Shown here in pieces: positions 34,820-64,000 of a stretch of DNA of 64,000 bases. The translations under genes were made by a program, and so were the position numbers. Below the pieces are notes generated by a model. That model was not told where the DNA came from and did no database searches. It saw only the letters and a program-made list of their open reading frames with translations. This stretch comes from Escherichia coli (GTDB lineage: Bacteria; Pseudomonadota; Gammaproteobacteria; Enterobacterales; Enterobacteriaceae). How positions within the stretch are numbered: position 1 is the first letter of the stretch; every line of letters begins with the position of its first letter. Location: assembly GCF_046105845.1 (NCBI RefSeq), contig NZ_CP151004.1. One strand, written 5' to 3'.

Positions 34820-36406
34820 TTAATGCTCGCGGGTCTGGTGGAACTGAACGTCCGGATAACGTTCCTGCGCCAGGCGCAGGTTTACCATGCTGGTAGCGAT
34901 GTAAGCGAGGTTATCGCCGCCATCAAGCGCCAGTTGGCTTTCGTTCTTACGCTTGAACTCTTCGAATTTCTTCGCGTCCGCACATTCTACCCAGCGGGCA
35001 GTGGCAACGTTGACTGACTCATACACTGCTTCAACGTTGTATTCGCTCTTCAGGCGCGCTACCACCACATCAAACTGCAGCACACCAACCGCGCCAACGA
35101 TCAGATCGTTGTTGGAGATCGGACGGAACACCTGCACCGCGCCCTCTTCGGAAAGCTGTACCAGCCCTTTAAGCAGCTGTTTTTGCTTCAGCGGATCTTT
35201 CAGGCGGATACGACGGAACAGTTCTGGCGCGAAGTTCGGAATACCGGTGAACTTCATCATCTCACCCTGGGTAAAGGTGTCGCCGATCTGAATGGTGCCG
35301 TGGTTGTGCAGACCAAGGATATCGCCAGGATATGCTTCTTCAACGTGCGAACGGTCACCCGCCATAAAGGTCAGCGCGTCGGAGATCACCACATCTTTCG
35401 CAGTACGCACCTGGCGCAGCTTCATGCCTTTTTCATATTTACCGGACACCACACGCATAAACGCCACGCGGTCGCGGTGTTTCGGGTCCATGTTGGCCTG
35501 AATTTTAAATACGAAGCCGGTAAATTTGTCTTCGCTCGCCTCTACGGTACGGGTATCAGTCTGACGCGGCATCGGCGCAGGGGCCCACTCCACCAGGCCA
35601 TCCAGCATATGATCGACGCCGAAGTTACCCAGCGCAGTACCAAAGAATACCGGGGTGATTTCGCCCGCAAGGAACAATTCTTTGTCGAACTCGTTAGACG
35701 CGCCTTTCACCAGCTCCAGTTCATCACGCAGCTGCTGCGCCAGATCTTCACCAACCGCAGCGTCGAGATCCGGGTTATTCAGCCCTTTAACAATGCGGAC
35801 TTCCTGAATGGTGTGGCCTTTACCACTCTGATAAAGATAGGTTTCATCTTTATAAAGGTGATAAACGCCTTTAAACAGCTTGCCGCAGCCAATCGGCCAG
35901 GTGATCGGTGCACAGCCGATTTTCAGCTCGTTCTCAACTTCATCGAGCAGCTCCATCGGGTCGCGGATATCACGGTCAAGTTTGTTCATAAAGGTGAGGA
36001 TCGGCGTGTCGCGCAGACGGGTAACTTCCATCAGCTTACGGGTACGATCTTCAACACCTTTTGCGGCGTCGATAACCATCAGGCAGCAGTCCACCGCCGT
36101 CAGGGTACGATAGGTATCTTCCGAGAAGTCTTCGTGCCCCGGGGTGTCGAGCAGGTTAACCAGGCAATCGTGATACGGAAACTGCATCACAGACGTGGTA
36201 ATGGAGATCCCACGCTGCTTTTCCATCTCCATCCAGTCCGACTTAGCGTGCTGGTTGGAACCACGGCCTTTTACTGTACCGGCGGTCTGAATGGCCTGTC
36301 CGAACAGCAGCACCTTCTCGGTGATGGTAGTCTTACCGGCGTCCGGGTGAGAAATAATTGCAAAGGTTCTTCTTTTCGCTACCTCTGCGGCCAAAAGGCT
36401 TGTCAT
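34820..36406 (-). CDS. prfC: Peptide chain release factor 3 (RF3); first about 9 codons differ from the K-12 N-terminus I recall
   Basis: ORF track 34820..36433; start at [27 protein letters not shown]; rest of the protein matches E. coli RF3. Confidence 0.9.
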
Positions 36407-36560
36407 AATTGTTGTCTCTTTGATTATGTACAATCATATGTACAAAGAAAAATTCATGCCGCTGATTGTACATTTTGGAGGTATCAGAGCATAGCAGAAC
36501 ATGATCAGTAGGTGTATTTGTAGCCAAAGAACATTTGTACATGCAGCAATCTTTGTTCTA

Positions 36561-53889: not shown

Positions 53890-54107
53890 CAGAACCTCGC
53901 AAGCCGGTACCCGGGATGCCCCCGTCGTCGTGTAATCAGAGCCGCAAGGCGGCGCTCCCACTCCTGCCGTCCCTGCCGGATCTCAGATAAGTTTTCCATG
54001 GTCATCTGCTGACCATTAAAGGTGACGGATTTTCCGTCCAGCACCGCCATTTCAGCTTCCGTATAACGCTGAATCATGGCTTCGATATCATTCTGGTTCA
54101 TAACCAT
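53889..54107 (-). CDS. Head-tail joining protein W-like (72 aa)
   Basis: ORF track; between terminase large subunit and portal. Confidence 0.6.
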   Translation of the reverse strand: MVMNQNDIEAMIQRYTEAEMAVLDGKSVTFNGQQMTMENLSEIRQGRQEWERRLAALITRRRGHPGYRLARF

Positions 54108-56200
54108 CCTCCGGAAGTCAGCCAGGGGTTAACATCGTCAGTTACTGTTTTCTTCCGTTTTTGTTTTTTAACAGGCGTGGATACCGGTTCCGGTGTGGGT
54201 GACGGTTCGGTACTGTCCGGGACACACTCCAGCCAGGTTTCCCGGCTCGCCCACTCCGGTGCATCCGGCCAGCGGATCTTTTCGTATCCATGCAGAATGA
54301 CCAGAGCCTCGGCATACACCATCAGGTCAAAAGCTTCGTTGGCACCGCGACCCGGCTTACTCCATTTCCCGTCACTGCTCCGCTCTTCATACGTCAGTTC
54401 GTCGTAAAACCAGCTCCCCAGCCAGTCAGGGAAATGCACATAGCCGGGACCTGGCGAGTCACGCCATAACGCGTTATTCACCCGGTCTTTCAGGGCATCC
54501 GTCTGAAGAAGCCAGAGCGGTACATCACCTGCGGCCTGCGCCCGTCGGCCCGTTCGTCCGGTGTTATCAGGGAATGTACGGGTGATCAGTTTTGCGCGCC
54601 GGATGCTGTCGCCCTTAAACAGGTAAATACGTTTACCAAGGCCATCACGACGGCAACGACGCCAGAATTTATAGGCATTATCAGTGACTCCGTCTTCACC
54701 GCCGGAGTCCACCGCCATTGCCATCAGTCGCATTTGTTGAGAAGGATCGGAGGCCAGCGGCCAGCTTTTATGAAAAACATCCGTCAGCAGGACATCCCAG
54801 TCTTCCGGATAGCTGGCCGGATCAATTCGCTGGCTCTCCCCGTCGCTGTCACCGCGCAATGACTGCGTGATGTTGTAACGATCAATAATCCAGCGTTCGC
54901 CACGGCTGCCATAGCCCGTTACCTGAACCACAAAACGGCGATGACGTCCCGCCTGCACATCAACTGTCGCCACCAGGAAATTAACGCCATCCGGCACACT
55001 GCGGGAAGGAACTGGCTCTGCCCGCTGCTCAAGCAGTTCACTTTTTCGTTGCTCCATGCTGGCACGGGGAAGATAAGGTAATCCCCAGTCGGTATTGATA
55101 ACCGTCTTGAGTGTTTCTTCACTTCCGGTTGTCTCGTATTCCTGTTCTGCAGCAAGCAGTTTGTAAACGAGTTGCGAGAGTGTCTGGTAAGCAGCTGCCG
55201 GACCCTCCATCCAGAATGACGCAATACGTGAGCGTCGGGGATCACCATAACGACTGCCATCCGCATTGATGGATTCACCATCCCGCAACCAGACCCCACG
55301 TCCGTTCAGCTCACGTTTTTGTTCAGGCATAATCCGTCCTGAACAGGAAGGACACTGAATATAAGCCGCCTCACTTGCCAGCACGGGATCGGCAATATCA
55401 CGGAAACCAGCAACCACATCGCCGCAGGGCTGAAAATACTCACCACAGTGTGGACAGGGCCAGTACCAGCGACGGCGATCGCCACGGTTATAGAGCGACA
55501 GTATCCCCGTGGTTGGTGGAGCCTCATGCGGTGAAGTCCGTCGCCATTTCACATCCTTCACATCCCTGCCGGGGGAACTCTCCACCAGCGTCATACCACT
55601 GGACATAAATGTGGTGGTACGTTTTGAGGCAAGAGAGAAGGCATCCCCCTCGCCATCAATATCTTCCGGAAAACGGTCATAATCCGTCAGCGCCACGCAT
55701 TTATAATCTGATGAGGACATGATATTGACTGACGGCCAGCCGATTTTCAGGTAGTTGCCAGCAAGGAATGTTCTGTCATAAACGTTGTTGTCATTTTTGT
55801 TCGGACTCAGGCGACTGACCACTTCCGGGCTGACGCGAAACGTTCTGGCAAGTCGTTTTTTGGAGTGTTCGCGGGCTTTTTCCTCCGTCATCTGAATGAT
55901 CAGCATATCAGCAGGATCGCAAATCACGTTGTAAATCACCCAGCCGTCAATCAGGCCGATAGTCTTGCCAGTTCGTGCCGGGCCAACAAATATCACTGCG
56001 TCGTATTCACGCGAGGCCAGGCAGTTCATCGGCTCAATAACATACGGTGCCACCAGCGGATCCCACGGGACTGAGTTCCCGGCCCCCATGGGCACCCGCA
56101 TATACTGAGCAACGGCATCAGCAACCCGCATTCGTCTCGGTGCGCGAAGGATATAACCTGAATCGGTTCGTGCTGCCTTTGCGGTTTCCTGATTCAGCAT
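54098..56200 (-). CDS. Terminase large subunit (lambda A-like), 700 aa
   Basis: ORF track; Walker A GPARTGKT, nuclease domain. Confidence 0.9.
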   Translation of the reverse strand: MLNQETAKAARTDSGYILRAPRRMRVADAVAQYMRVPMGAGNSVPWDPLVAPYVIEPMNCLASREYDAVIFVGPARTGKTIGLIDGWVIYNVICDPADMLIIQMTEEKAREHSKKRLARTFRVSPEVVSRLSPNKNDNNVYDRTFLAGNYLKIGWPSVNIMSSSDYKCVALTDYDRFPEDIDGEGDAFSLASKRTTTFMSSGMTLVESSPGRDVKDVKWRRTSPHEAPPTTGILSLYNRGDRRRWYWPCPHCGEYFQPCGDVVAGFRDIADPVLASEAAYIQCPSCSGRIMPEQKRELNGRGVWLRDGESINADGSRYGDPRRSRIASFWMEGPAAAYQTLSQLVYKLLAAEQEYETTGSEETLKTVINTDWGLPYLPRASMEQRKSELLEQRAEPVPSRSVPDGVNFLVATVDVQAGRHRRFVVQVTGYGSRGERWIIDRYNITQSLRGDSDGESQRIDPASYPEDWDVLLTDVFHKSWPLASDPSQQMRLMAMAVDSGGEDGVTDNAYKFWRRCRRDGLGKRIYLFKGDSIRRAKLITRTFPDNTGRTGRRAQAAGDVPLWLLQTDALKDRVNNALWRDSPGPGYVHFPDWLGSWFYDELTYEERSSDGKWSKPGRGANEAFDLMVYAEALVILHGYEKIRWPDAPEWASRETWLECVPDSTEPSPTPEPVSTPVKKQKRKKTVTDDVNPWLTSGGWL

Positions 56201-56691
56201 TACTCCTCCTGCTGTAATTCCTCCTCATCATCCGCACCTGCTTCGGTCACCCGCAGGGCTATCTGATCGCGCAGATCATCAATAATGGACTGAACACGGC
56301 TCACAGCGGCAGGCTGCAGGCCGCAGTCACGTTCCAGAATATCCGGTAATGTCTCCAGCACCTGCACGACCGCTTTTGCCCAGATGGCAAACTCCCGTCT
56401 GACATCACTGGCCGGAATGAGTTGTGCCGTTTCCTGTTCGAACTTAAGACGCTCACGTTCAGACTGATACCAGGCTTTGCGTTCATGTGGATCCATTTCG
56501 CCCTCAGCAACCGGCGGTGGTAACCCCATAAATTCAGTCAGAATATCGGTCAACCGGTATAGCTTGAGTTTGTCATGTCCACCAGCGGGACGAATGTTTT
56601 TCAGTCTTGCCACGACAGTCTGGCGGTGCAGACCAGATAAAGCCGCCAGTTGATTAATATTCAGCACCAGGTTTTTCAACTCATGATCCAT
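56200..56691 (-). CDS. Terminase small subunit (Nu1-like, N-terminal HTH)
   Basis: ORF track; directly upstream of terminase large subunit with overlapping stop/start. Confidence 0.7.
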   Translation of the reverse strand: MDHELKNLVLNINQLAALSGLHRQTVVARLKNIRPAGGHDKLKLYRLTDILTEFMGLPPPVAEGEMDPHERKAWYQSERERLKFEQETAQLIPASDVRREFAIWAKAVVQVLETLPDILERDCGLQPAAVSRVQSIIDDLRDQIALRVTEAGADDEEELQQEE

Positions 56692-56860
56692 ATTTCCTCC
56701 GGAGAGCTTTAAACATGCATCGTGCGAACAACTTTAAGAAAACGCGTTCGATGTCGAACAAAAAACACTCAATTCGACATACAAAAAACAAACAACCATT
56801 AATAATCAATAAGATGCAAAGATGATGGTGGCCGATAAGAATGCAAAAACTAGCCTTTTT

Positions 56861-56880
56861 CCGCGACGCTCCCGCCCCGT
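56861..56880 (-). other. Candidate cos site (cohesive-end cleavage region), about 186 bp upstream of the Nu1-like start
   Basis: Minus strand reads GGGCGGGAGCGTCGCGG, similar to the lambda left end GGGCGGCGACCTCGCGG as I recall it; spacing to Nu1 like lambda. Confidence 0.5.
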
Positions 56881-57244
56881 GGCAGGGCCCCCCCCCAGGG
56901 AGGACCCGACAGCCTGACAACCGTGACGAGCATCTGAAACAGAGCTTTACATAATGGCGTGGGGATAATTCAGAAGGACATCACAGCATGCCCACACAAA
57001 TTAGTGTGAGTGTCCTGTTTCTTACTACGCGCAGGACTGACGAGCATGAGGGGAAAATACGCGAACCGAAATGCCTTATCTTCAGAAATGCAGCCGGCAT
57101 CCGAACTGGACGATATTGTAAATTCACCTAAATACGAGGCATTGCTGTAGTTGAATTGCAGTACTGTATTAGCCTGACAGTGACAGAATACGATATTGAC
57201 TCTGTCACTTGTGAAATGGTCAGAATGGTTAGCAGTTATGGTGA

Positions 57245-57451
57245 TCAGTCAACCACCAGGGAATAATCCTTCGTATTCTTATCGTGCTTTACTAACGCGG
57301 CCTCAATTGCCCTGAATGCTTCCAGAGATACTTGATGTTCTATACATGCAATTACAACATCCGGGTAACCCATCGAAATGGTGCTATTAAGCATAGTTTT
57401 TACACGAACCTGCTCCTGGGAGGGGGCATCAGTGTATTGATCTTTATGCAT
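57245..57451 (-). CDS. Hypothetical 68-aa protein between P2-like ogr and the lambdoid cos region
   Basis: ORF track only; no recognised family. Confidence 0.35.
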
Positions 57452-57775
57452 TTTGTCGCTCCATGCGTTTGCTCTTCACTTGCGGCTAAAAATATAACGT
57501 CAAATCACTCAGCATGAAAGAGTGAAAGTTTCAGCGCGTTTCCCTTACATAATCTGTCGTTTGTATTCTCTTCAGGCATACCGGAAAGACTAGGTATTGT
57601 CACACAACCAATACCATCGACAATCGAGATTTATATCTATTCGGTAATGTTTAAATATAACAAAACCCCGTAAAAACGAGGTTTATGGGTATTTTGTTGT
57701 CTGAAATTTATGCCGTTTAAAATCATGACGTTAGAAGCACTGTTTTTTAACGATGGCGACAAAATGGCGGCAGCG

Positions 57776-57991
57776 TCAAAGAGAGAGCGCCACCTGTCCT
57801 GATTTCATTGGATGCGGCTGAACCGGATTTGACTCTTTTGGCGTTGCAATCGAACGAACAAAAGTTTCATGGGTTACAAAAGTATGGCTGCAGTTAATAT
57901 TCTGGCACTGGTTGTAACGCTCTTTGGTCAATGAAGATACCTGAAAACTGCTGCGAGTATGGGCGGCACTTCCACACAGTGGGCAAATCAT
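57776..57991 (-). CDS. ogr: P2 Ogr-type zinc-finger late-gene activator (about 71 aa)
   Basis: ORF track 57776..58027; CPLC...CQNINCSHTF zinc-binding pattern matches Ogr (CPLC...CQNVNCSATF). Confidence 0.8.
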   Translation of the reverse strand: MICPLCGSAAHTRSSFQVSSLTKERYNQCQNINCSHTFVTHETFVRSIATPKESNPVQPHPMKSGQVALSL

Positions 57992-58084
57992 CATTTTTCG
58001 AGTTCTCCCCATTTTTGCTAAATTCACAATAATGATACCGCATTATTCCATTTTGCAAACTTAAAAGTTCTCCATTGCGAAGAA

Positions 58085-59185
58085 TCATTCCATTTCGAAA
58101 TCATCAATCCTCACTTCAAGCTCCAAACTGGTCGTAAAACCGTTATCCGGGCTGACGGTATGCGTCAGAGTCGTAATGGTCCATTCCGCATCATCTATCG
58201 GCTGTTTAAAACCACTGACCTTCACAGGCATTTCCGTGTAGAGATCTGCCCGCCCTTCTGCCAGTTGTAGCGAAAATGACGCAACGCCGCGTTGCAGGCG
58301 TTCCCACTGCATTTTCGCCGCTCGTTCGGCGTTGCTTCGGTTGGCATAAGTGCGATTAAGTACCAGCACGTTTTCATCCGTACCCACCAGGTAATCGCCC
58401 TGCTTCGCTTCTGGCTCTTTCTTCTGCTTCTTAGTTCTGCGCTTACGCTTCACCGTGGTGCTTTCTTTCTTCGCAGGTTCGCGGGTATGCAACCAGCTGG
58501 CAATTACGCCCGTGTAGGCTCCGCGATCTGCCAGGGTAAATCGGTGACTGTCGCCGTCCTTGCGTGTGATAGTGATCACTGGCAGAGGTTTACCAGTGGC
58601 GCTTTTGCCCTGCCCCTGCCGGATGAATAACAGATTGCCATTTTTCACCGACGCGATGGCACCGTACTGTCGCGCCAGCCGCATCAGAAAACTGCCGTCA
58701 CTCTCATTAGTCTGGTCTATATGCTCCACGGGCTTATCCGACAGGTCTTTACCCAGTGCCATCTTCAGCTTGTGCCGCGCGGCTATTTCCTTCACCACTT
58801 CCCCGACGGTGGTCTTATGCCACGATTTTTCACGGCGGGTATTCAGCGTTTCCCGAAAATCAGCACTTCGCGCCCGGATAGTCAGGCGGTCCGGTGCGCC
58901 AGTGTGTTCAATCTCGTCCACTGTGAATGCCCCTTTCGGGAAAAGCGGCTGCCCCTTCCAGCCCAGCGCCAGCGTAATAACCGCACCACGGCGCGGCAGC
59001 ACGATTTTTCCGTCAGCGTCATCCAGCTCCAGATCAAGCTGGTCCGCTTCAAAGCCCCGGTTATCCGTCAGCGTCAAACTCATCAGGCGGTTATCCAGCA
59101 CAGTGGTGATATCCCTGCCCTCAATACTGATGCTGAATGCGGGAGTTTTGTTGCCTTTGTTAAGCAGTTCAGAGCTGAAATTCAC
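58085..59185 (-). CDS. P2 gpD-like late control / tail protein D (366 aa)
   Basis: ORF track; position between U and ogr. Confidence 0.85.
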   Translation of the reverse strand: MNFSSELLNKGNKTPAFSISIEGRDITTVLDNRLMSLTLTDNRGFEADQLDLELDDADGKIVLPRRGAVITLALGWKGQPLFPKGAFTVDEIEHTGAPDRLTIRARSADFRETLNTRREKSWHKTTVGEVVKEIAARHKLKMALGKDLSDKPVEHIDQTNESDGSFLMRLARQYGAIASVKNGNLLFIRQGQGKSATGKPLPVITITRKDGDSHRFTLADRGAYTGVIASWLHTREPAKKESTTVKRKRRTKKQKKEPEAKQGDYLVGTDENVLVLNRTYANRSNAERAAKMQWERLQRGVASFSLQLAEGRADLYTEMPVKVSGFKQPIDDAEWTITTLTHTVSPDNGFTTSLELEVRIDDFEME

Positions 59186-59667
59186 GACAGCAGCCCTCCC
59201 ACCGTTTTACTGATATCGCTTAAGGCAGACGTTGCCGTGTCCTGCAGATTATTCAGTTGCGCACTGAGATCACCGAACATATCGGACAGGGATTCATCCA
59301 CTCGTTTGAGCGACAGGGTGAACTCAATCCGGCGCGGCATACCGTCGCGGAAAAACTCCGTTTTAGTCTGATTCAGTCCCTCAATCACATACATGCCGTA
59401 AATCGTGCCGCTGCCTTCAATCAGGGGCCATGCTTTCCCCTGTTCTGCCATCTGCTCCAGTGCCAGCAACGACAGCCTGCCGCCTGTTATCTCCGGCATA
59501 AGAACACCGGAAAGCGTCAGCATGTCGTTGTCCGGTCCCAGAAACTGCGTGGACGGACGACGATTTACCCGGCTGTTAGCCACATGTCGCCAGCTGCGCT
59601 GATACTGCAGTTCCTGATACGGCACGGTGCGCAGCATAAACACGTACAATCCCAGCACCATCATCAT
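59182..59667 (-). CDS. P2 gpU-like tail protein (161 aa)
   Basis: ORF track; overlaps D start and T stop. Confidence 0.8.
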   Translation of the reverse strand: MMMVLGLYVFMLRTVPYQELQYQRSWRHVANSRVNRRPSTQFLGPDNDMLTLSGVLMPEITGGRLSLLALEQMAEQGKAWPLIEGSGTIYGMYVIEGLNQTKTEFFRDGMPRRIEFTLSLKRVDESLSDMFGDLSAQLNNLQDTATSALSDISKTVGGLLS

Positions 59668-62600
59668 GCGTCGTATCCCCCCTGATCGCTGTAGTTACTC
59701 CTGGCTTTTGCCTTCAGCCTGCGTTCACGTTCATCAAGCTGGCGGGCCACCTCCCGCGCAATATCCTGCGCACTTTGTCCTGGCTGTGTCTGGATGATGA
59801 TCTGCGTCGGTGCTTCAATCCGTTGAACGGGCGGCACAGTGGCTGCACGACTCACCATCGCTTCACCGCCTTTCGCGGGAAGTGCCAAAGGGTGCAACGG
59901 TGGAAGCTCTGCTGGCGTAGCAGCAACACCCATCATTCCGGCAACAACGGCAGCCAGTGCAGCTGTATTTCTCCGGCTGGTCACATTTGCCGGGCCGTTA
60001 ACAATTTCCGGCCCGTTTTCACCGACGATGCCAAACTGCCCGCGCGGGATATACCCGCCGCTGTCATACATCCCCGCAAAGCCATATCCCCATGACGGAA
60101 AACCACCCGATGGCATCATCACTTTACCGTCTGCATTCACCGTCGCAGGTTGCTGACGCGTCACGCTTTCCGGCAGTTTCGCCTTTGCGGCCTCTTTACT
60201 GACAATGCCAAGTTTCTCCAGCAACCAGGAAACGCCGGATTTCAGCGAGTCCAGCGGATGCATGACCATATTCAGCCCTTCCGCCAGAGCCTCCCCGAAT
60301 CGTCGCCCCATTGCCGCTGCACTCTGCAGTTCGGCAGAGGTCGACTTAACGGGCGTCAGCAGATCAGTAAACCAGCCCCACAGCGCCTGTACTTTGTCGC
60401 CAATCCACTGGAACACAGGCTTAAGCGGTTCGAACGCGGCACTGACAGGACCTGCCGCCGCTTTGAATCCTTCCACCACGCCACCGAGAAATGCGGTGAT
60501 GGGCTGCCAGTATTTCCAGACAACCAGCGCCACACCCGCCAGTGCAGTAACCACAAGACCTATCGGACTGAGCAGAGCACCTAACAGACCAGAGACGGCA
60601 TACAGGGCAACGCGCAGCATCGCCAGTGGACCGGATGCGAGCATACGCAGCACCGTGCCTGTGGCAGCCAGTCCGCCGCGTAGTACCGCCAGTGGATTCA
60701 TAAACATCACAGCAACCGCACGTAAACCGGATAATCCAGACCGCAAAAGTGCAACCGGCGCACCTGCTACAGTTTTCAGGATATTTCCCGTCAGTAATGC
60801 CGTGCGGCGCAAAGACGACAACGGCGCAGTAAGTAAACCTGCAGCGTTGCCCGATGAAGCAAGCCCGCGTCGCAGCAGTGCCAGTGGTGCGCCAGCCAGC
60901 CAGGACAACGCGTTGCTGGTTCGGGTTACTGCTGCCGTAACGGAAGGTAACGTTTTGATACCCAGCACAGAGAATCCCAGACGGATGACTGCCAGCGGCC
61001 CCAGCACTGCAGCCAGCGCCACCGCTAAGGTGCCGAGGCCCACGGTAACGGCAGCTACCACAGCGGCTACTTTCATCAGAGTGCCCGTCAGTTCCGGGTT
61101 AGCTTCCACCCAGCGACGCAACGCCCCCGTGACGCTTTTCACCGTGTACAGAATATCCATCAGCGGCTGGCGCAGCGTTTCCCCCAGGCTGCTGAAGGTG
61201 TTCTGTGCTCCGGTTTTGACCAGCAACCACTGAGCAGAAAGTGAATCCTTGTTGATGTCGGATTCTTTCTGCATGGAACCGAGCGCATCATTGCCCGCTG
61301 TCAGTTTTAACTGGCGCTGAAGTTCCGGCAGGTTGTTTGCCAGTTTCGCTGCGTCATCGCCAAACTCTTTACCAAACAACATGGTCATGGCAGACAGGCG
61401 CTTATCCTGTGGCAGCGCATTCACCTTCTCCAGCACGCGCTGGATAGTTCCCATCGCATCCTTCGTCATCTGCTTTTCAATCACTTCTGGATTGAGTTTC
61501 AGCAGATTCATCCCTTCAAAGAAACTCTTGCTTTGCATGGTGGCAATGGACAATTCACGCACCATCGCGTTTGCTGCACTGGCTGCAACCTCAGGCGCAG
61601 CGCCGAGTGTCAGGAAGGTGGAACCCAGCGCCGCCGCTTTACGATAATCCAGACGGTCAGCCACACCGCCCAGGCGTTGCATGACATCAATGATGTCCGC
61701 CCCTTTCGACATGGCGTTATCATCCAGATAGTTCAGCGCATCACCGAGCTGCTCAATATTGCGGGTAGGGATTTTGTAGAGCTGGGCGATTTTCCCCAGA
61801 CTTTCTGACAGTTCATCCGCTGGCAGTTCAAAGGCTGTTGCCGCCTTTGCCGCCGTGCTGGCGAAGGCCAGCAGGTCACGTTTCTGATCTTCCCAGCTGT
61901 CGTCAGGGTTTGCGACGTTCATGCGCGCACCACCTTCAACCAGTGCAGCGAAGTCCACCGCACCGTTTTCCATCGGCAACTGTTCGCTGGCAGCCTTGAT
62001 GGCATCCTGCATTTCATAAAAACGTGCAGTGCGGTTGCCATTATCGTCACGCAGACCATTGACCTGCTTTGCCACACCTTTCATGGCATCTTCCATGCTG
62101 GTATAGCTTTTTACTGCCGCCATCACTGGCGCACCCATTGCCAGCCCTGCAGCCGTGGTGGTAGCTCCGGCACCTGCAATACGATCACGCACCTCCAGCG
62201 AACGGGCATAACTGGCACGCGCTGCATTCATCCTGCGCTGAGCTTCCCCCAGTCGCTTCAGCCGCGCCTCCTGTTTCGAAAGTTCCTGGTTATAACGTGA
62301 TGTTTCACGGGCTAAACGGGCAGTTGCTCCCGCATCGTCTTTCGCAGAAATTCCCGCCCGGTACAGTTCAGCACGCACAAGCGCCGTCTGCTGCTGCAGC
62401 TTTTTCTGGCGTTCTTCTAGGCGCTGAACAGCCAGCCGTTGACGGCCCAGAGCAACAACCTGACGTTGCGAAGGCGGCCCCATCGCTCCCAGTTCCTGAC
62501 TGAGCAAATTTGCACGCTGGCGGGCATAGTTCAGCCTGTCGCCTAATTTCTGATTTTCTGCCTGCAGCTTTCGGAAGCTGTCCAGACTGCTCCCGGCCTG

Positions 62601-62741
62601 ATCAAGCTGCTTTATTGCATCGCGGGATTTTTTGACAGCAGCAGCCAGTTCTCTTGAACTGGCCTGCGCAGATCGAAATGGGCGGGTGAGCTTGTCAACC
62701 GCATTAAGAATGACCTGCAGACGCAGGTTGTTATCACTCAT
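59664..62741 (-). CDS. P2 gpT-like tail tape measure protein (1025 aa)
   Basis: ORF track; long coiled-coil plus hydrophobic repeat region, follows E/E+E'. Confidence 0.85.
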   Translation of the reverse strand: MSDNNLRLQVILNAVDKLTRPFRSAQASSRELAAAVKKSRDAIKQLDQAGSSLDSFRKLQAENQKLGDRLNYARQRANLLSQELGAMGPPSQRQVVALGRQRLAVQRLEERQKKLQQQTALVRAELYRAGISAKDDAGATARLARETSRYNQELSKQEARLKRLGEAQRRMNAARASYARSLEVRDRIAGAGATTTAAGLAMGAPVMAAVKSYTSMEDAMKGVAKQVNGLRDDNGNRTARFYEMQDAIKAASEQLPMENGAVDFAALVEGGARMNVANPDDSWEDQKRDLLAFASTAAKAATAFELPADELSESLGKIAQLYKIPTRNIEQLGDALNYLDDNAMSKGADIIDVMQRLGGVADRLDYRKAAALGSTFLTLGAAPEVAASAANAMVRELSIATMQSKSFFEGMNLLKLNPEVIEKQMTKDAMGTIQRVLEKVNALPQDKRLSAMTMLFGKEFGDDAAKLANNLPELQRQLKLTAGNDALGSMQKESDINKDSLSAQWLLVKTGAQNTFSSLGETLRQPLMDILYTVKSVTGALRRWVEANPELTGTLMKVAAVVAAVTVGLGTLAVALAAVLGPLAVIRLGFSVLGIKTLPSVTAAVTRTSNALSWLAGAPLALLRRGLASSGNAAGLLTAPLSSLRRTALLTGNILKTVAGAPVALLRSGLSGLRAVAVMFMNPLAVLRGGLAATGTVLRMLASGPLAMLRVALYAVSGLLGALLSPIGLVVTALAGVALVVWKYWQPITAFLGGVVEGFKAAAGPVSAAFEPLKPVFQWIGDKVQALWGWFTDLLTPVKSTSAELQSAAAMGRRFGEALAEGLNMVMHPLDSLKSGVSWLLEKLGIVSKEAAKAKLPESVTRQQPATVNADGKVMMPSGGFPSWGYGFAGMYDSGGYIPRGQFGIVGENGPEIVNGPANVTSRRNTAALAAVVAGMMGVAATPAELPPLHPLALPAKGGEAMVSRAATVPPVQRIEAPTQIIIQTQPGQSAQDIAREVARQLDERERRLKAKARSNYSDQGGYDA

Positions 62742-63170
62742 CGTTGGCCCCGCTTCTCTGAATCGCTTTATACCGCCATTCCAGCACTTCGGTCAGCGGC
62801 ATAACGTCAGTAACGGATGGCGGCCAGTGAAAAATGGTGGCGATATCTGCCACCAGATCGTCAACCGTCAGGCTGTCGGTAAACCGGCAAGCACCGACTT
62901 CTTCAACAAAAAAGTGACAACCTCAACCGACATGGCAGTGAGATCTGCCGGGTCCATCTCTGCAATTTCCTGTGCAGTCAGTGCCGGACTGGAGATGCGG
63001 GGGATCACGGTCATCATCGCGTTTACATCCATATCCATAATGGCCTGCAGGCGTGTACCGCGCAGCGCACCGGACTGCGGTTTACGCAGCACAATTTCGG
63101 TGATTTCTGTTTTACCGCGCTTGATGGGGGTATCCAGTTGAATGGTCTTTTCAGTCTGCTTATCGCTCAT
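62734..63170 (-). CDS. P2 gpE / gpE+E' tail assembly chaperones (E = 62868..63170; E+E' by -1 frameshift at T-TTT-TTG, plus-strand 62907-62913, ending 62734)
   Basis: ORF track for E; manual translation shows -1 frame open from the slippery site to a TGA overlapping the T start codon. Confidence 0.75.
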
Positions 63171-63195
63171 TTTGCTGTCCTGTCAATTGGGTTCT

Positions 63196-63213
63196 GGCGC
63201 GGTATCCCGCGCC
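63196..63213 (-). terminator. Hairpin downstream of FII (P2-type attenuating terminator between FII and E)
   Basis: ggcgcggtatcccgcgcc GC-rich stem-loop 12 bp after FII stop. Confidence 0.5.
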
Positions 63214-63224
63214 GTTCAGATATA

Positions 63225-63740
63225 TCAGAGGCCGAGGGCGTTGCGGTGCGCTTCCATCAGGTCCACACCGTCCACAATTTCCACCATGTTGATAAGGTCC
63301 ACTTCATAGAGCACCTCACCATTGATGGTCAGCTTCGCGTAGCTGTTGGTACTGGTCACTTTGGTGGTGTTGCTTTCGCCCGTCTTCCACTCGCCGGAAT
63401 CCACTTCTTTGTGACGTCCACGCACGACAAGCTCCACGGCCTGCACTTCCGCGGTATCGTCACGCTGAATAGAGCCGGTAAAGCGCAGCTGGATGCCATC
63501 CACCGTGGCTTTACCCATCTGTTTAAACAGCAGCAATTCAGTACCACCAATGGAAAATTCTGTGTCCAGCGCACTGTCATCAAGCCCCAGATCCACATCC
63601 ACCGCACCCGGCATTCCGCCGCCGCGATACTTCTCATATTTGCGGGTAAATTTCGGCAGCGTCAGCGACTCAACGATCCCCTGCCAGTTGTTCCCGTCGT
63701 TAAACAGGTTCAGGTGTTTTAATTTGCGTGGTAAAGCCAT
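63225..63740 (-). CDS. P2 FII-like major tail tube protein (171 aa)
   Basis: ORF track; downstream of tail sheath gene. Confidence 0.85.
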   Translation of the reverse strand: MALPRKLKHLNLFNDGNNWQGIVESLTLPKFTRKYEKYRGGGMPGAVDVDLGLDDSALDTEFSIGGTELLLFKQMGKATVDGIQLRFTGSIQRDDTAEVQAVELVVRGRHKEVDSGEWKTGESNTTKVTSTNSYAKLTINGEVLYEVDLINMVEIVDGVDLMEAHRNALGL

Positions 63741-63749
63741 GTTGTCCCC

Positions 63750-64000
63750 TTACGCGCTGACCTGGCTGGCGAAATTCACCAGGTACTGATCGGTGATGCG
63801 CTGACGCAGCATCAGGTTTTCAAGTGGCGGCACTGGCGTGTAGTCGTAGTCGATGGTGAGTTTTCCGGCTTTCAGCGTGTCTTTGTCGTTCACCGACTCA
63901 TCCAGCCAGCAATCACCACCAATGAGATAGCCCTGACAGACCAGGCTGCGCATTTTGGCGCGGATACCTTCGATAATGTCGCGGGCCAGCGACGGGTTAA
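63750..64000 (-). CDS. P2 FI-like tail sheath protein, C-terminal end (gene continues beyond window)
   Basis: ORF track 63750..63953 and open frame to window edge; position upstream of FII. Confidence 0.7.

Follow-up and report, generated by a model that had tools for sequence, protein, structure and literature searches.

Within the 64,000 nucleotides of Escherichia coli DNA analysed here (contig NZ_CP151004.1; referred to as the window), a short GC-rich segment on the minus strand at 56861-56880 raises the question of whether it is the cos site of a lambda-like phage and, if so, which end it marks. A sequence-only reading had taken it for a lambda-like cos upstream of the terminase genes, indicating a cos-packaging lambdoid phage and marking a lambdoid genome end that would help to delimit the junction with a P2-like element. 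The analysis indicates that the segment is very probably a cos site of lambda type, arranged as in lambda and belonging to a lambdoid prophage that is integrated at prfC.

Anatomy of the cohesive-end site

The minus strand from 56877 to 56861 reads GGGCGGGAGCGTCGCGG, the 17-mer on which the sequence-only reading was based; from 56880 to 56861 it reads ACGGGGCGGGAGCGTCGCGG, in the wider minus-strand context ...GTCGGGTCCTCCCTGGGGGGGGGCCCTGCCACGGGGCGGGAGCGTCGCGGAAAAAGGCTAG... The first G of the motif (56877) lies 186 bp upstream of the small-terminase ATG at 56691, which opens a 163-aa ORF at 56200-56691(-), and these coordinates confirm the distance originally given. The elements of the site are as follows, a solidus marking a predicted nick position and mature bp 1 being window position 56877.

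56901-56907, minus strand: cosQ heptamer GGGTCCT, the packaging-termination element, identical to the cosQ of lambda and Gifsy-1
56878-56900, minus strand: cosQ-cosN spacer of 23 nt, CCCTGGGGGGGGGCCCTGCCACG, with a G9 run at 56888-56896
56861-56880, minus strand: cosN, ACG/GGGCGGGAGCGT/CGCGG, placed by the ends of the cdtI and Tritos records and by alignment with lambda and Gifsy-1
56844-56865, minus strand: I2-like conserved segment CGCGGAAAAAGGCTAGTTTTTG, mature bp 13-34

The alignment with the lambda cos, which had been set beforehand as a check, revealed clear similarity: cosQ, cosN and their flanks align with both lambda and Gifsy-1, as the following comparison shows.

lambda: cosQ GGGTCCT; spacer 23 nt (TTCCGGTGATCCGACAGGTTACG); cohesive end and flank GGGCGGCGACCT/CGCGG
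Gifsy-1: cosQ GGGTCCT; spacer 23 nt; cohesive end and flank GGGCGGCAGCGT/CGCAG
window: cosQ GGGTCCT; spacer 23 nt; cohesive end and flank GGGCGGGAGCGT/CGCGG

The cosQ heptamer, the 23-nt spacer, the frame ACG/GGGCGG....../CGCGG and the 12-nt register are thus all as in lambda. The 20-mer ACGGGGCGGCGACCTCGCGG equals lambda at 16 of 20 positions, its four mismatches all falling within overhang positions 7-11; for the overhang itself, GGGCGGGAGCGT against GGGCGGCGACCT, 8 of 12 positions are equal, positions 1-6 being identical and positions 7, 8, 9 and 11 different. Gifsy-1 (GGGCGGCAGCGT) is one base away from the window overhang (position 7), but it differs in having a true Nu1-family TerS, a lambda-like cosB sequence and the 3' flank CGCAG instead of CGCGG. 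Among lambda-like phages the right half of the overhang varies while its left half and cosQ are conserved, with Gifsy-1 differing at positions 8, 9 and 11 (PMC4669245), and the window overhang matches this natural pattern of variation. CG dinucleotides flank both nick positions (...ACG/GGG... and ...CGT/CGC...), in agreement with the criterion given for such sites (PMC4669245). By analogy with lambda, we infer nicks at 56878/56877 on the minus strand and 56865/56866 on the plus strand, which would leave a 12-nt 5' overhang at 56866-56877.

Packaging by a headful (pac) mechanism or from an HK97-type cos with a 3' overhang, with a merely fortuitous GC-rich resemblance to lambda, could be argued from the 12-mer, which equals lambda at only 8 of 12 positions. 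The window, however, contains GGGCGGNNNNNTCGCGG only once on both strands and two copies of GGGTCCT, one of them exactly 23 nt upstream of cosN, and the composite GGGTCCT-N21-CGGGGCGG has a single match, with no mismatch. Shuffled sequences gave a mean of 0.12 matches to this composite even with two mismatches allowed. Since the composite is unique against an expectation of about 0.1, the resemblance to cos is not due to chance.

The site also coincides with the ends of deposited phage genomes. Megablast of 56600-57150 placed base 1 of the phage cdtI record (AB285204) at window position 56877, where that record likewise reads GGGCGGGAGCGT; the Tritos record (OV696610) begins with GGGCGGGAGCGT at 56877 and ends with ...CCACG at 56878. 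These record ends coincide with 56877/56878, the starts having been either experimentally mapped or chosen by analogy with lambda. Tritos, a siphovirus of E. coli LF82, is inducible and forms plaques (PMC9928086). The window has the same cohesive end GGGCGGGAGCGT, the same flanks and the same I2-like segment as Tritos, cdtI, phi458, PhiR40_1 and vB_EcoS-606R10; it differs from these phages in its 23-nt spacer, theirs being 22 nt, and in that its copy sits in a prophage broken by the P2-like element. Two of these phages, PhiR40_1 and 606R10, have near-identical cos regions, sharing the cosB of the window and a 100% identical TerS, whereas Tritos and cdtI diverge from the window after about bp 38 and have a different cosB and a TerS that is only 42% identical. 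The I2-like segment, the best-conserved block in an alignment of nine phages with a DUF1441 TerS, is common to the window, cdtI and Tritos up to this point.

Homology breaks off at about mature bp 38, between cosN and cosB, in what resembles a recombination joint. In the paradigm of lambda and phage 21, cosN is common and cosB is subunit-specific; the shared cosN with differing cosB and TerS, as seen in these alignments, fits it. A related observation is that cdtI, Tritos, HannyBb and mEp460_ev081, with 42%-identical TerS and unrelated cosB, share cosQ, cosN and I2 with the window, the first ~38 bp after the nick being those at 56840-56877, and that the right-arm end is also common to the window and HannyBb, mEp460_ev081 and Tritos. 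The record of mEp460_4F5 (LR595868.1) starts CCACGGGGCGGGAGCGCGG at 1-30, opening 5 nt before the cos nick, and its cohesive-end region is 3 nt shorter than in the window and phi458; assembly of the cohesive ends probably produced this start as an artefact.

A different overhang, GGGCGGCGCGCT, has been inferred as a putative cos for mEp213 and LLS (PMC12315714) and is also present in mEp043, together with the same cosQ as in the window. These phages (mEp213, mEp043 and LLS) have a TerS of the same DUF1441 family (62% identity) and share cosQ and the I2, R3 and R1 blocks with the window, but differ from it in the overhang's right half (CGCGCT versus GAGCGT) and in that R1 abuts the ATG, the window having a leader of about 55 extra bp. 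The Gifsy-2 cos region was dropped as a reference, as it aligned only loosely, with AGGTACT in place of GGGTCCT and a different overhang.

Regarding the spacer, it is 22 nt long, with G8 or an interrupted run, in E. coli JNEC-KY175, PhiR40_1, 606R10, phi458 and mEp043, and the 99.7%-identical E. coli prophage has G8 where the window has the G9/C9 homopolymer. Related cos segments are found in 2,032 of 5,426 complete E. coli genomes, but the identical 81-mer is absent from these 5,426 genomes, the best matches differing by a 1-nt gap. The G9 spacer could be one of two things impairing this copy, and may reflect either slippage or a sequencing error in the homopolymer.

An ORF at 56681-56920(-), of 79 aa with a TTG start, crosses cosQ, cosN and cosB, and the counterpart of this cos-spanning frame in PhiR40_1 (record 1285-1590) is annotated as 'hypothetical protein'. 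It was rejected as a gene, having no family match; a spurious call over a packaging site that does not code for protein is the likeliest explanation. A full-text literature search for the exact 12-mer GGGCGGGAGCGT returned only unrelated eukaryotic papers.

Terminase genes and candidate cosB elements

The two terminase genes follow cos on the minus strand, with portal, head and tail genes downstream of terL.

56200-56691, minus strand: terS, small terminase subunit, 163 aa, DUF1441/phrog_141
54098-56200, minus strand: terL, large terminase subunit, 700-aa ORF, gpA family

TerL has the Pfam domains GpA_ATPase (PF05876, 8.6e-72) and GpA_nuclease (PF20454, 1.2e-85), which are also those of lambda gpA, and aligns with the latter at 25% identity over 623 aa (BLASTP, E 4e-19). 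Neither of the two results that would have spoken against the cos reading, a terminase grouping with those of headful packagers or a lack of alignment to known cos regions, was obtained; together with the two deposited phage genomes that start or end at the site, the gpA-family TerL bears out the proposal of a cos-packaging lambdoid phage. The comparison with HK97, which had also been suggested, was negative: TerL has no similarity to the HK97 TerL (gp2) by BLASTP (E 0.16), the latter belongs to the Pfam families TerL_ATPase/TerL_nuclease, and the sequence of the HK97 left end is unrelated to the site.

Compared with the TerL of Tritos, to which it is 87% identical overall, TerL is a mosaic, about 77% identical over residues 24-383 and with only three differences over residues 384-700. 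The N-terminal part of the lambda TerL contacts the small subunit. The mosaic is consistent with an exchange in which a TerS-interacting N-terminus would travel with terS and cosB, and it is likewise consistent with a C-terminal half, within the region of the Pfam nuclease domain, that may be shared with phages having the same cosN.

The small subunit matches Pfam DUF1441 (4.6e-44) and phrog_141, 'terminase small subunit' (2.7e-77); its identity to the phage TerS proteins is 100% for PhiR40_1 and vB_EcoS-606R10 and 86% for phi458, mEp460 and Ayreon. The sequence-only reading had called it Nu1-like and its distance from cos lambda-like. The distance holds, as the terS ATG occupies mature bp 187-189 and the lambda nu1 start is at bp 191, but the family does not: BLASTP gave no alignment with lambda Nu1, and the only Pfam match is DUF1441, not Phage_Nu1 (PF07471), which the TerS proteins of lambda and Gifsy-1 do match. 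Reciprocal PHROG cross-matches were found (window TerS to phrog_57, the Nu1 family, 8e-9; Nu1 to phrog_141, 6e-8), suggesting a remote relationship to Nu1, of whose family the window TerS is not a member. A PDB sequence search with TerS returned only insignificant HTH matches. Beyond TerS, the window differs from lambda in that its cosB has no sequence similarity to that of lambda and its TerL is only 25% identical; the two have in common a gpA-family TerL and, with the window elements taken as candidates, an R3-like element near bp 50 followed by an inverted R pair.

The interval from cos to the ATG was aligned for nine phages with a DUF1441 TerS (48% to 100% TerS identity to the window), and the closest relatives were aligned as well. 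The following candidate elements of cosB were recognised.

56821-56831, minus strand: R3-like candidate TerS site CCACCATCATC, mature bp 47-57, with an invariant CAnCA core at bp 51-55
56804-56816, plus strand: IHF-like candidate site AATCAATAAGATG (I1 analogue), mature bp 62-74
56773-56780, plus strand: R2-like candidate, the inverted arm TTCGACAT, mature bp 98-105, read as ATGTCGAA
56751-56758, minus strand: R1-like candidate TTCGACAT, mature bp 120-127
56718-56728, minus strand: extra R-like candidate TTCGCACGATG, mature bp 150-160, conserved in phi458, mEp460, PhiR40_1 and 606R10

The R1-like and R2-like candidates, TTCGACAT (bp 120-127) and ATGTCGAA (bp 98-105), form a perfect 8-bp inverted repeat, and two of the four occurrences of TTCGACAT in the window are in this cosB pair. 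The sequence TGTTCnnCA (bp 118-126) is invariant across the nine phages, and the R2-like element is conserved in Gifsy-2, mEp043 and yong2. Agreement of the R3-like element with the R1- and R2-like ones is weak, at about 5/10 positions. A single mismatch separates the IHF-like site from the loose consensus WATCAANNNNTTR, the site being the sole such match in the interval; the TTGAT within it (bp 69-73) is kept in most relatives. The R3 of lambda occupies bp 50-65, and the distance from the R site to the terminase cut is 47±2 bp (PMC9026076). The order of the candidates, R3-like, IHF-like, inverted R and direct R, plausibly mirrors the lambda cosB, as a prediction from the alignment.

In mEp043, Chris1 and yong2, terS starts directly after R1, and the window lineage seems to have a leader of about 55 extra bp, possibly including a vestigial R1 and start codon. 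In this leader, TTGTTCGCACGATGCATG (56714-56731, mature bp 147-164) resembles the R1-ATG junction TGTTCACCATCATG of these three phages.

The lambdoid right arm and the P2-like junction

Regarding the question of which end cos marks, the sequence to its right was compared with that of phages and uninterrupted prophages.

56908-57697, minus strand: end of the lambdoid right arm, including a ybcW-like 68-aa ORF at 57245-57451
57680-57700, minus strand: hybrid attR core ACAACAAAATACCCATAAACC, the junction of the P2-like and lambdoid prophages

The right-arm end has 98-99% identity with phages HannyBb and mEp460_ev081 and with E. coli prophages, the homology beginning at 57697; lambdoid DNA thus extends 820 bp beyond cos. 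E. coli JNEC-KY175 carries an uninterrupted version of the same prophage, 99.7% identical over 32000-56900, in which the order is holin, lysozyme, Rz, cspI, ymcF, ynfN, gnsB, a 207-bp ORF, cos, DUF1441 and terL.

The junction was defined by a three-way alignment of the window, the uninterrupted lambdoid sequence and the attR of 4LV2017, together with the ybjL-side attR of E. coli 89-3156. The natural attR of the P2-like element adjoins ybjL and has the core ACAACAAAAAACCCATCAACC, and the uninterrupted lambdoid target reads ACAATACAAATTACCCATAAACC. As ACAACAAAATACCCATAAACC is a hybrid of phage and target sequences, the P2-like element was inserted in the manner of an integrase at a secondary att site inside the lambdoid prophage. 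This secondary site resembles the normal ybjL-side attB, and the insertion has the gnsB position on one side and the ybcW-like ORF on the other. At 57679-57703 the P2-like module begins with ogr, followed by gpD, gpU and a 1025-aa ORF in the position of the tape measure; its genes are found at 57776-64000, 6.3 kb of the element are inside the window, and the P2-like prophage is 772 bp upstream of cosQ. The element shares 97% identity with Klebsiella phage 4LV2017 and 99.8% with E. coli prophages; the junction itself was found in none of the 5,426 complete E. coli genomes.

The claim that cos is a lambdoid genome end therefore stands for the chromosome of the virion but not for the boundary of the prophage, since lambdoid DNA runs on to 57697, and cos does not delimit the P2-like junction, which is an att-type crossover at 57700..57680.

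On the other side of the lambdoid prophage, a full-length prfC (RF-3) at 34820-36433 abuts its tail-fibre end, which places the prophage at the prfC locus. Integration at prfC has been reported for cdtI and, from attP similarity, inferred for Ayreon (PMC5764929). The segment 7100-32000 is E. coli core chromosome (slt, ettA, radA, deoA, yjjI) at 98.5% identity.

Packaging model and alternative readings

Read in minus-strand order, the region contains cosQ, a 23-nt spacer, cosN, the I2-like segment, cosB, terS and terL, and by analogy with lambda would function as follows. The DUF1441-type TerS would bind the R-like repeats of cosB, with a probable IHF-induced bend between the R3-like and R2-like elements, and this binding would place the gpA-type TerL on cosN. 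There, nicks staggered by 12 bp (56878/56877 on the minus and 56865/56866 on the plus strand) would generate the 5' cohesive end GGGCGGGAGCGT, and packaging would proceed toward terS/terL, that is, toward lower window coordinates. The cosQ heptamer would serve in recognition and nicking of the next cos at termination. The positions nicked in this element, the sites bound by TerS and IHF and the activity of this copy are here predicted by comparison.

Other explanations differ widely in how well they account for the region. There is nearly an even chance that the cos is genuine but that this copy is unable to yield viable lambdoid virions, because a nested P2-like prophage lies 820 bp to the right of cosN. 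The insertion is evident from the three-way alignment and the hybrid att core, and its junction is absent from all 5,426 complete E. coli genomes. Related phages are 42-47 kb long, and 33.5 kb is the length of the related P2-like phage 4LV2017; with a full-length nested element, the distance from cos to cos would be about 75-80 kb, the capsid would suit a genome of 42-47 kb, and the P2-like element would have to excise first. Phages with a lambda-type cos have an upper packaging limit, and 75-80 kb is beyond it. Against this, the 6.3 kb of the P2-like element within the window could belong to a short remnant, the lambdoid lysis, replication and immunity genes lie outside the window, and cos, terS and terL themselves look intact.

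It is far less probable that the site is a satellite cos, in which the cosQ and cosN of an island hijack the terminase of a lambda-like helper. Such phage-inducible islands (PICIs) do have cosQ and cosN sequences that are almost the same as in lambda-like phages, with corresponding spacing (PMC9026076), but in PICIs cos is followed by rpp without structural genes, whereas in the window it is followed by terS, a full gpA-type terL, a head-tail adaptor, portal, prohead protease/capsid, tape measure, gpJ and tail fibre, the structural genes covering about 20 kb and reaching prfC, and complete lambdoid prophages are collinear with the segment at 99.7%. The PICI reading is refuted by the genes that follow cos. 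A chance resemblance with headful or HK97-type packaging is the least credible of all, being refuted by the alignments and the terminase family assignment: the cosQ-spacer-cosN composite is unique in the window, deposited phage genomes end at the site, and TerL has gpA-specific domains with no similarity to the TerL of HK97.

The lambda-type cos of a lambdoid prophage at prfC remains the preferred reading, and a more elaborate version of it is rather unlikely. In this version the cosB of the DUF1441-type TerS (R3-like CATCATC, IHF site and inverted TTCGACAT pair) would represent an experimentally uncharacterised packaging specificity and, separately, the P2-like prophage 820 bp upstream of cos would act as a reversible packaging lock. 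If so, excision of the inner P2-like prophage would be needed to restore the cos-to-cos length, and the 1-nt G-run polymorphism in the cosQ-cosN spacer could in addition tune termination.

The cos of the window belongs to an already known class, the same cohesive-end variant being found in deposited E. coli phages, and the P2-like prophage nested beside it is its only mildly unusual feature. Beyond annotation, little is added by the resulting map of the region, which consists of prfC, attR, tail and head genes, terL, terS, cos, about 820 bp of right-arm end and the nested P2-like prophage, but it keeps the prophage boundary from being mis-set at cos. For the lambdoid phage, the site fixes the type of packaging and the ends of the virion chromosome as those of a lambda-type cos with a predicted 12-nt 5' overhang.
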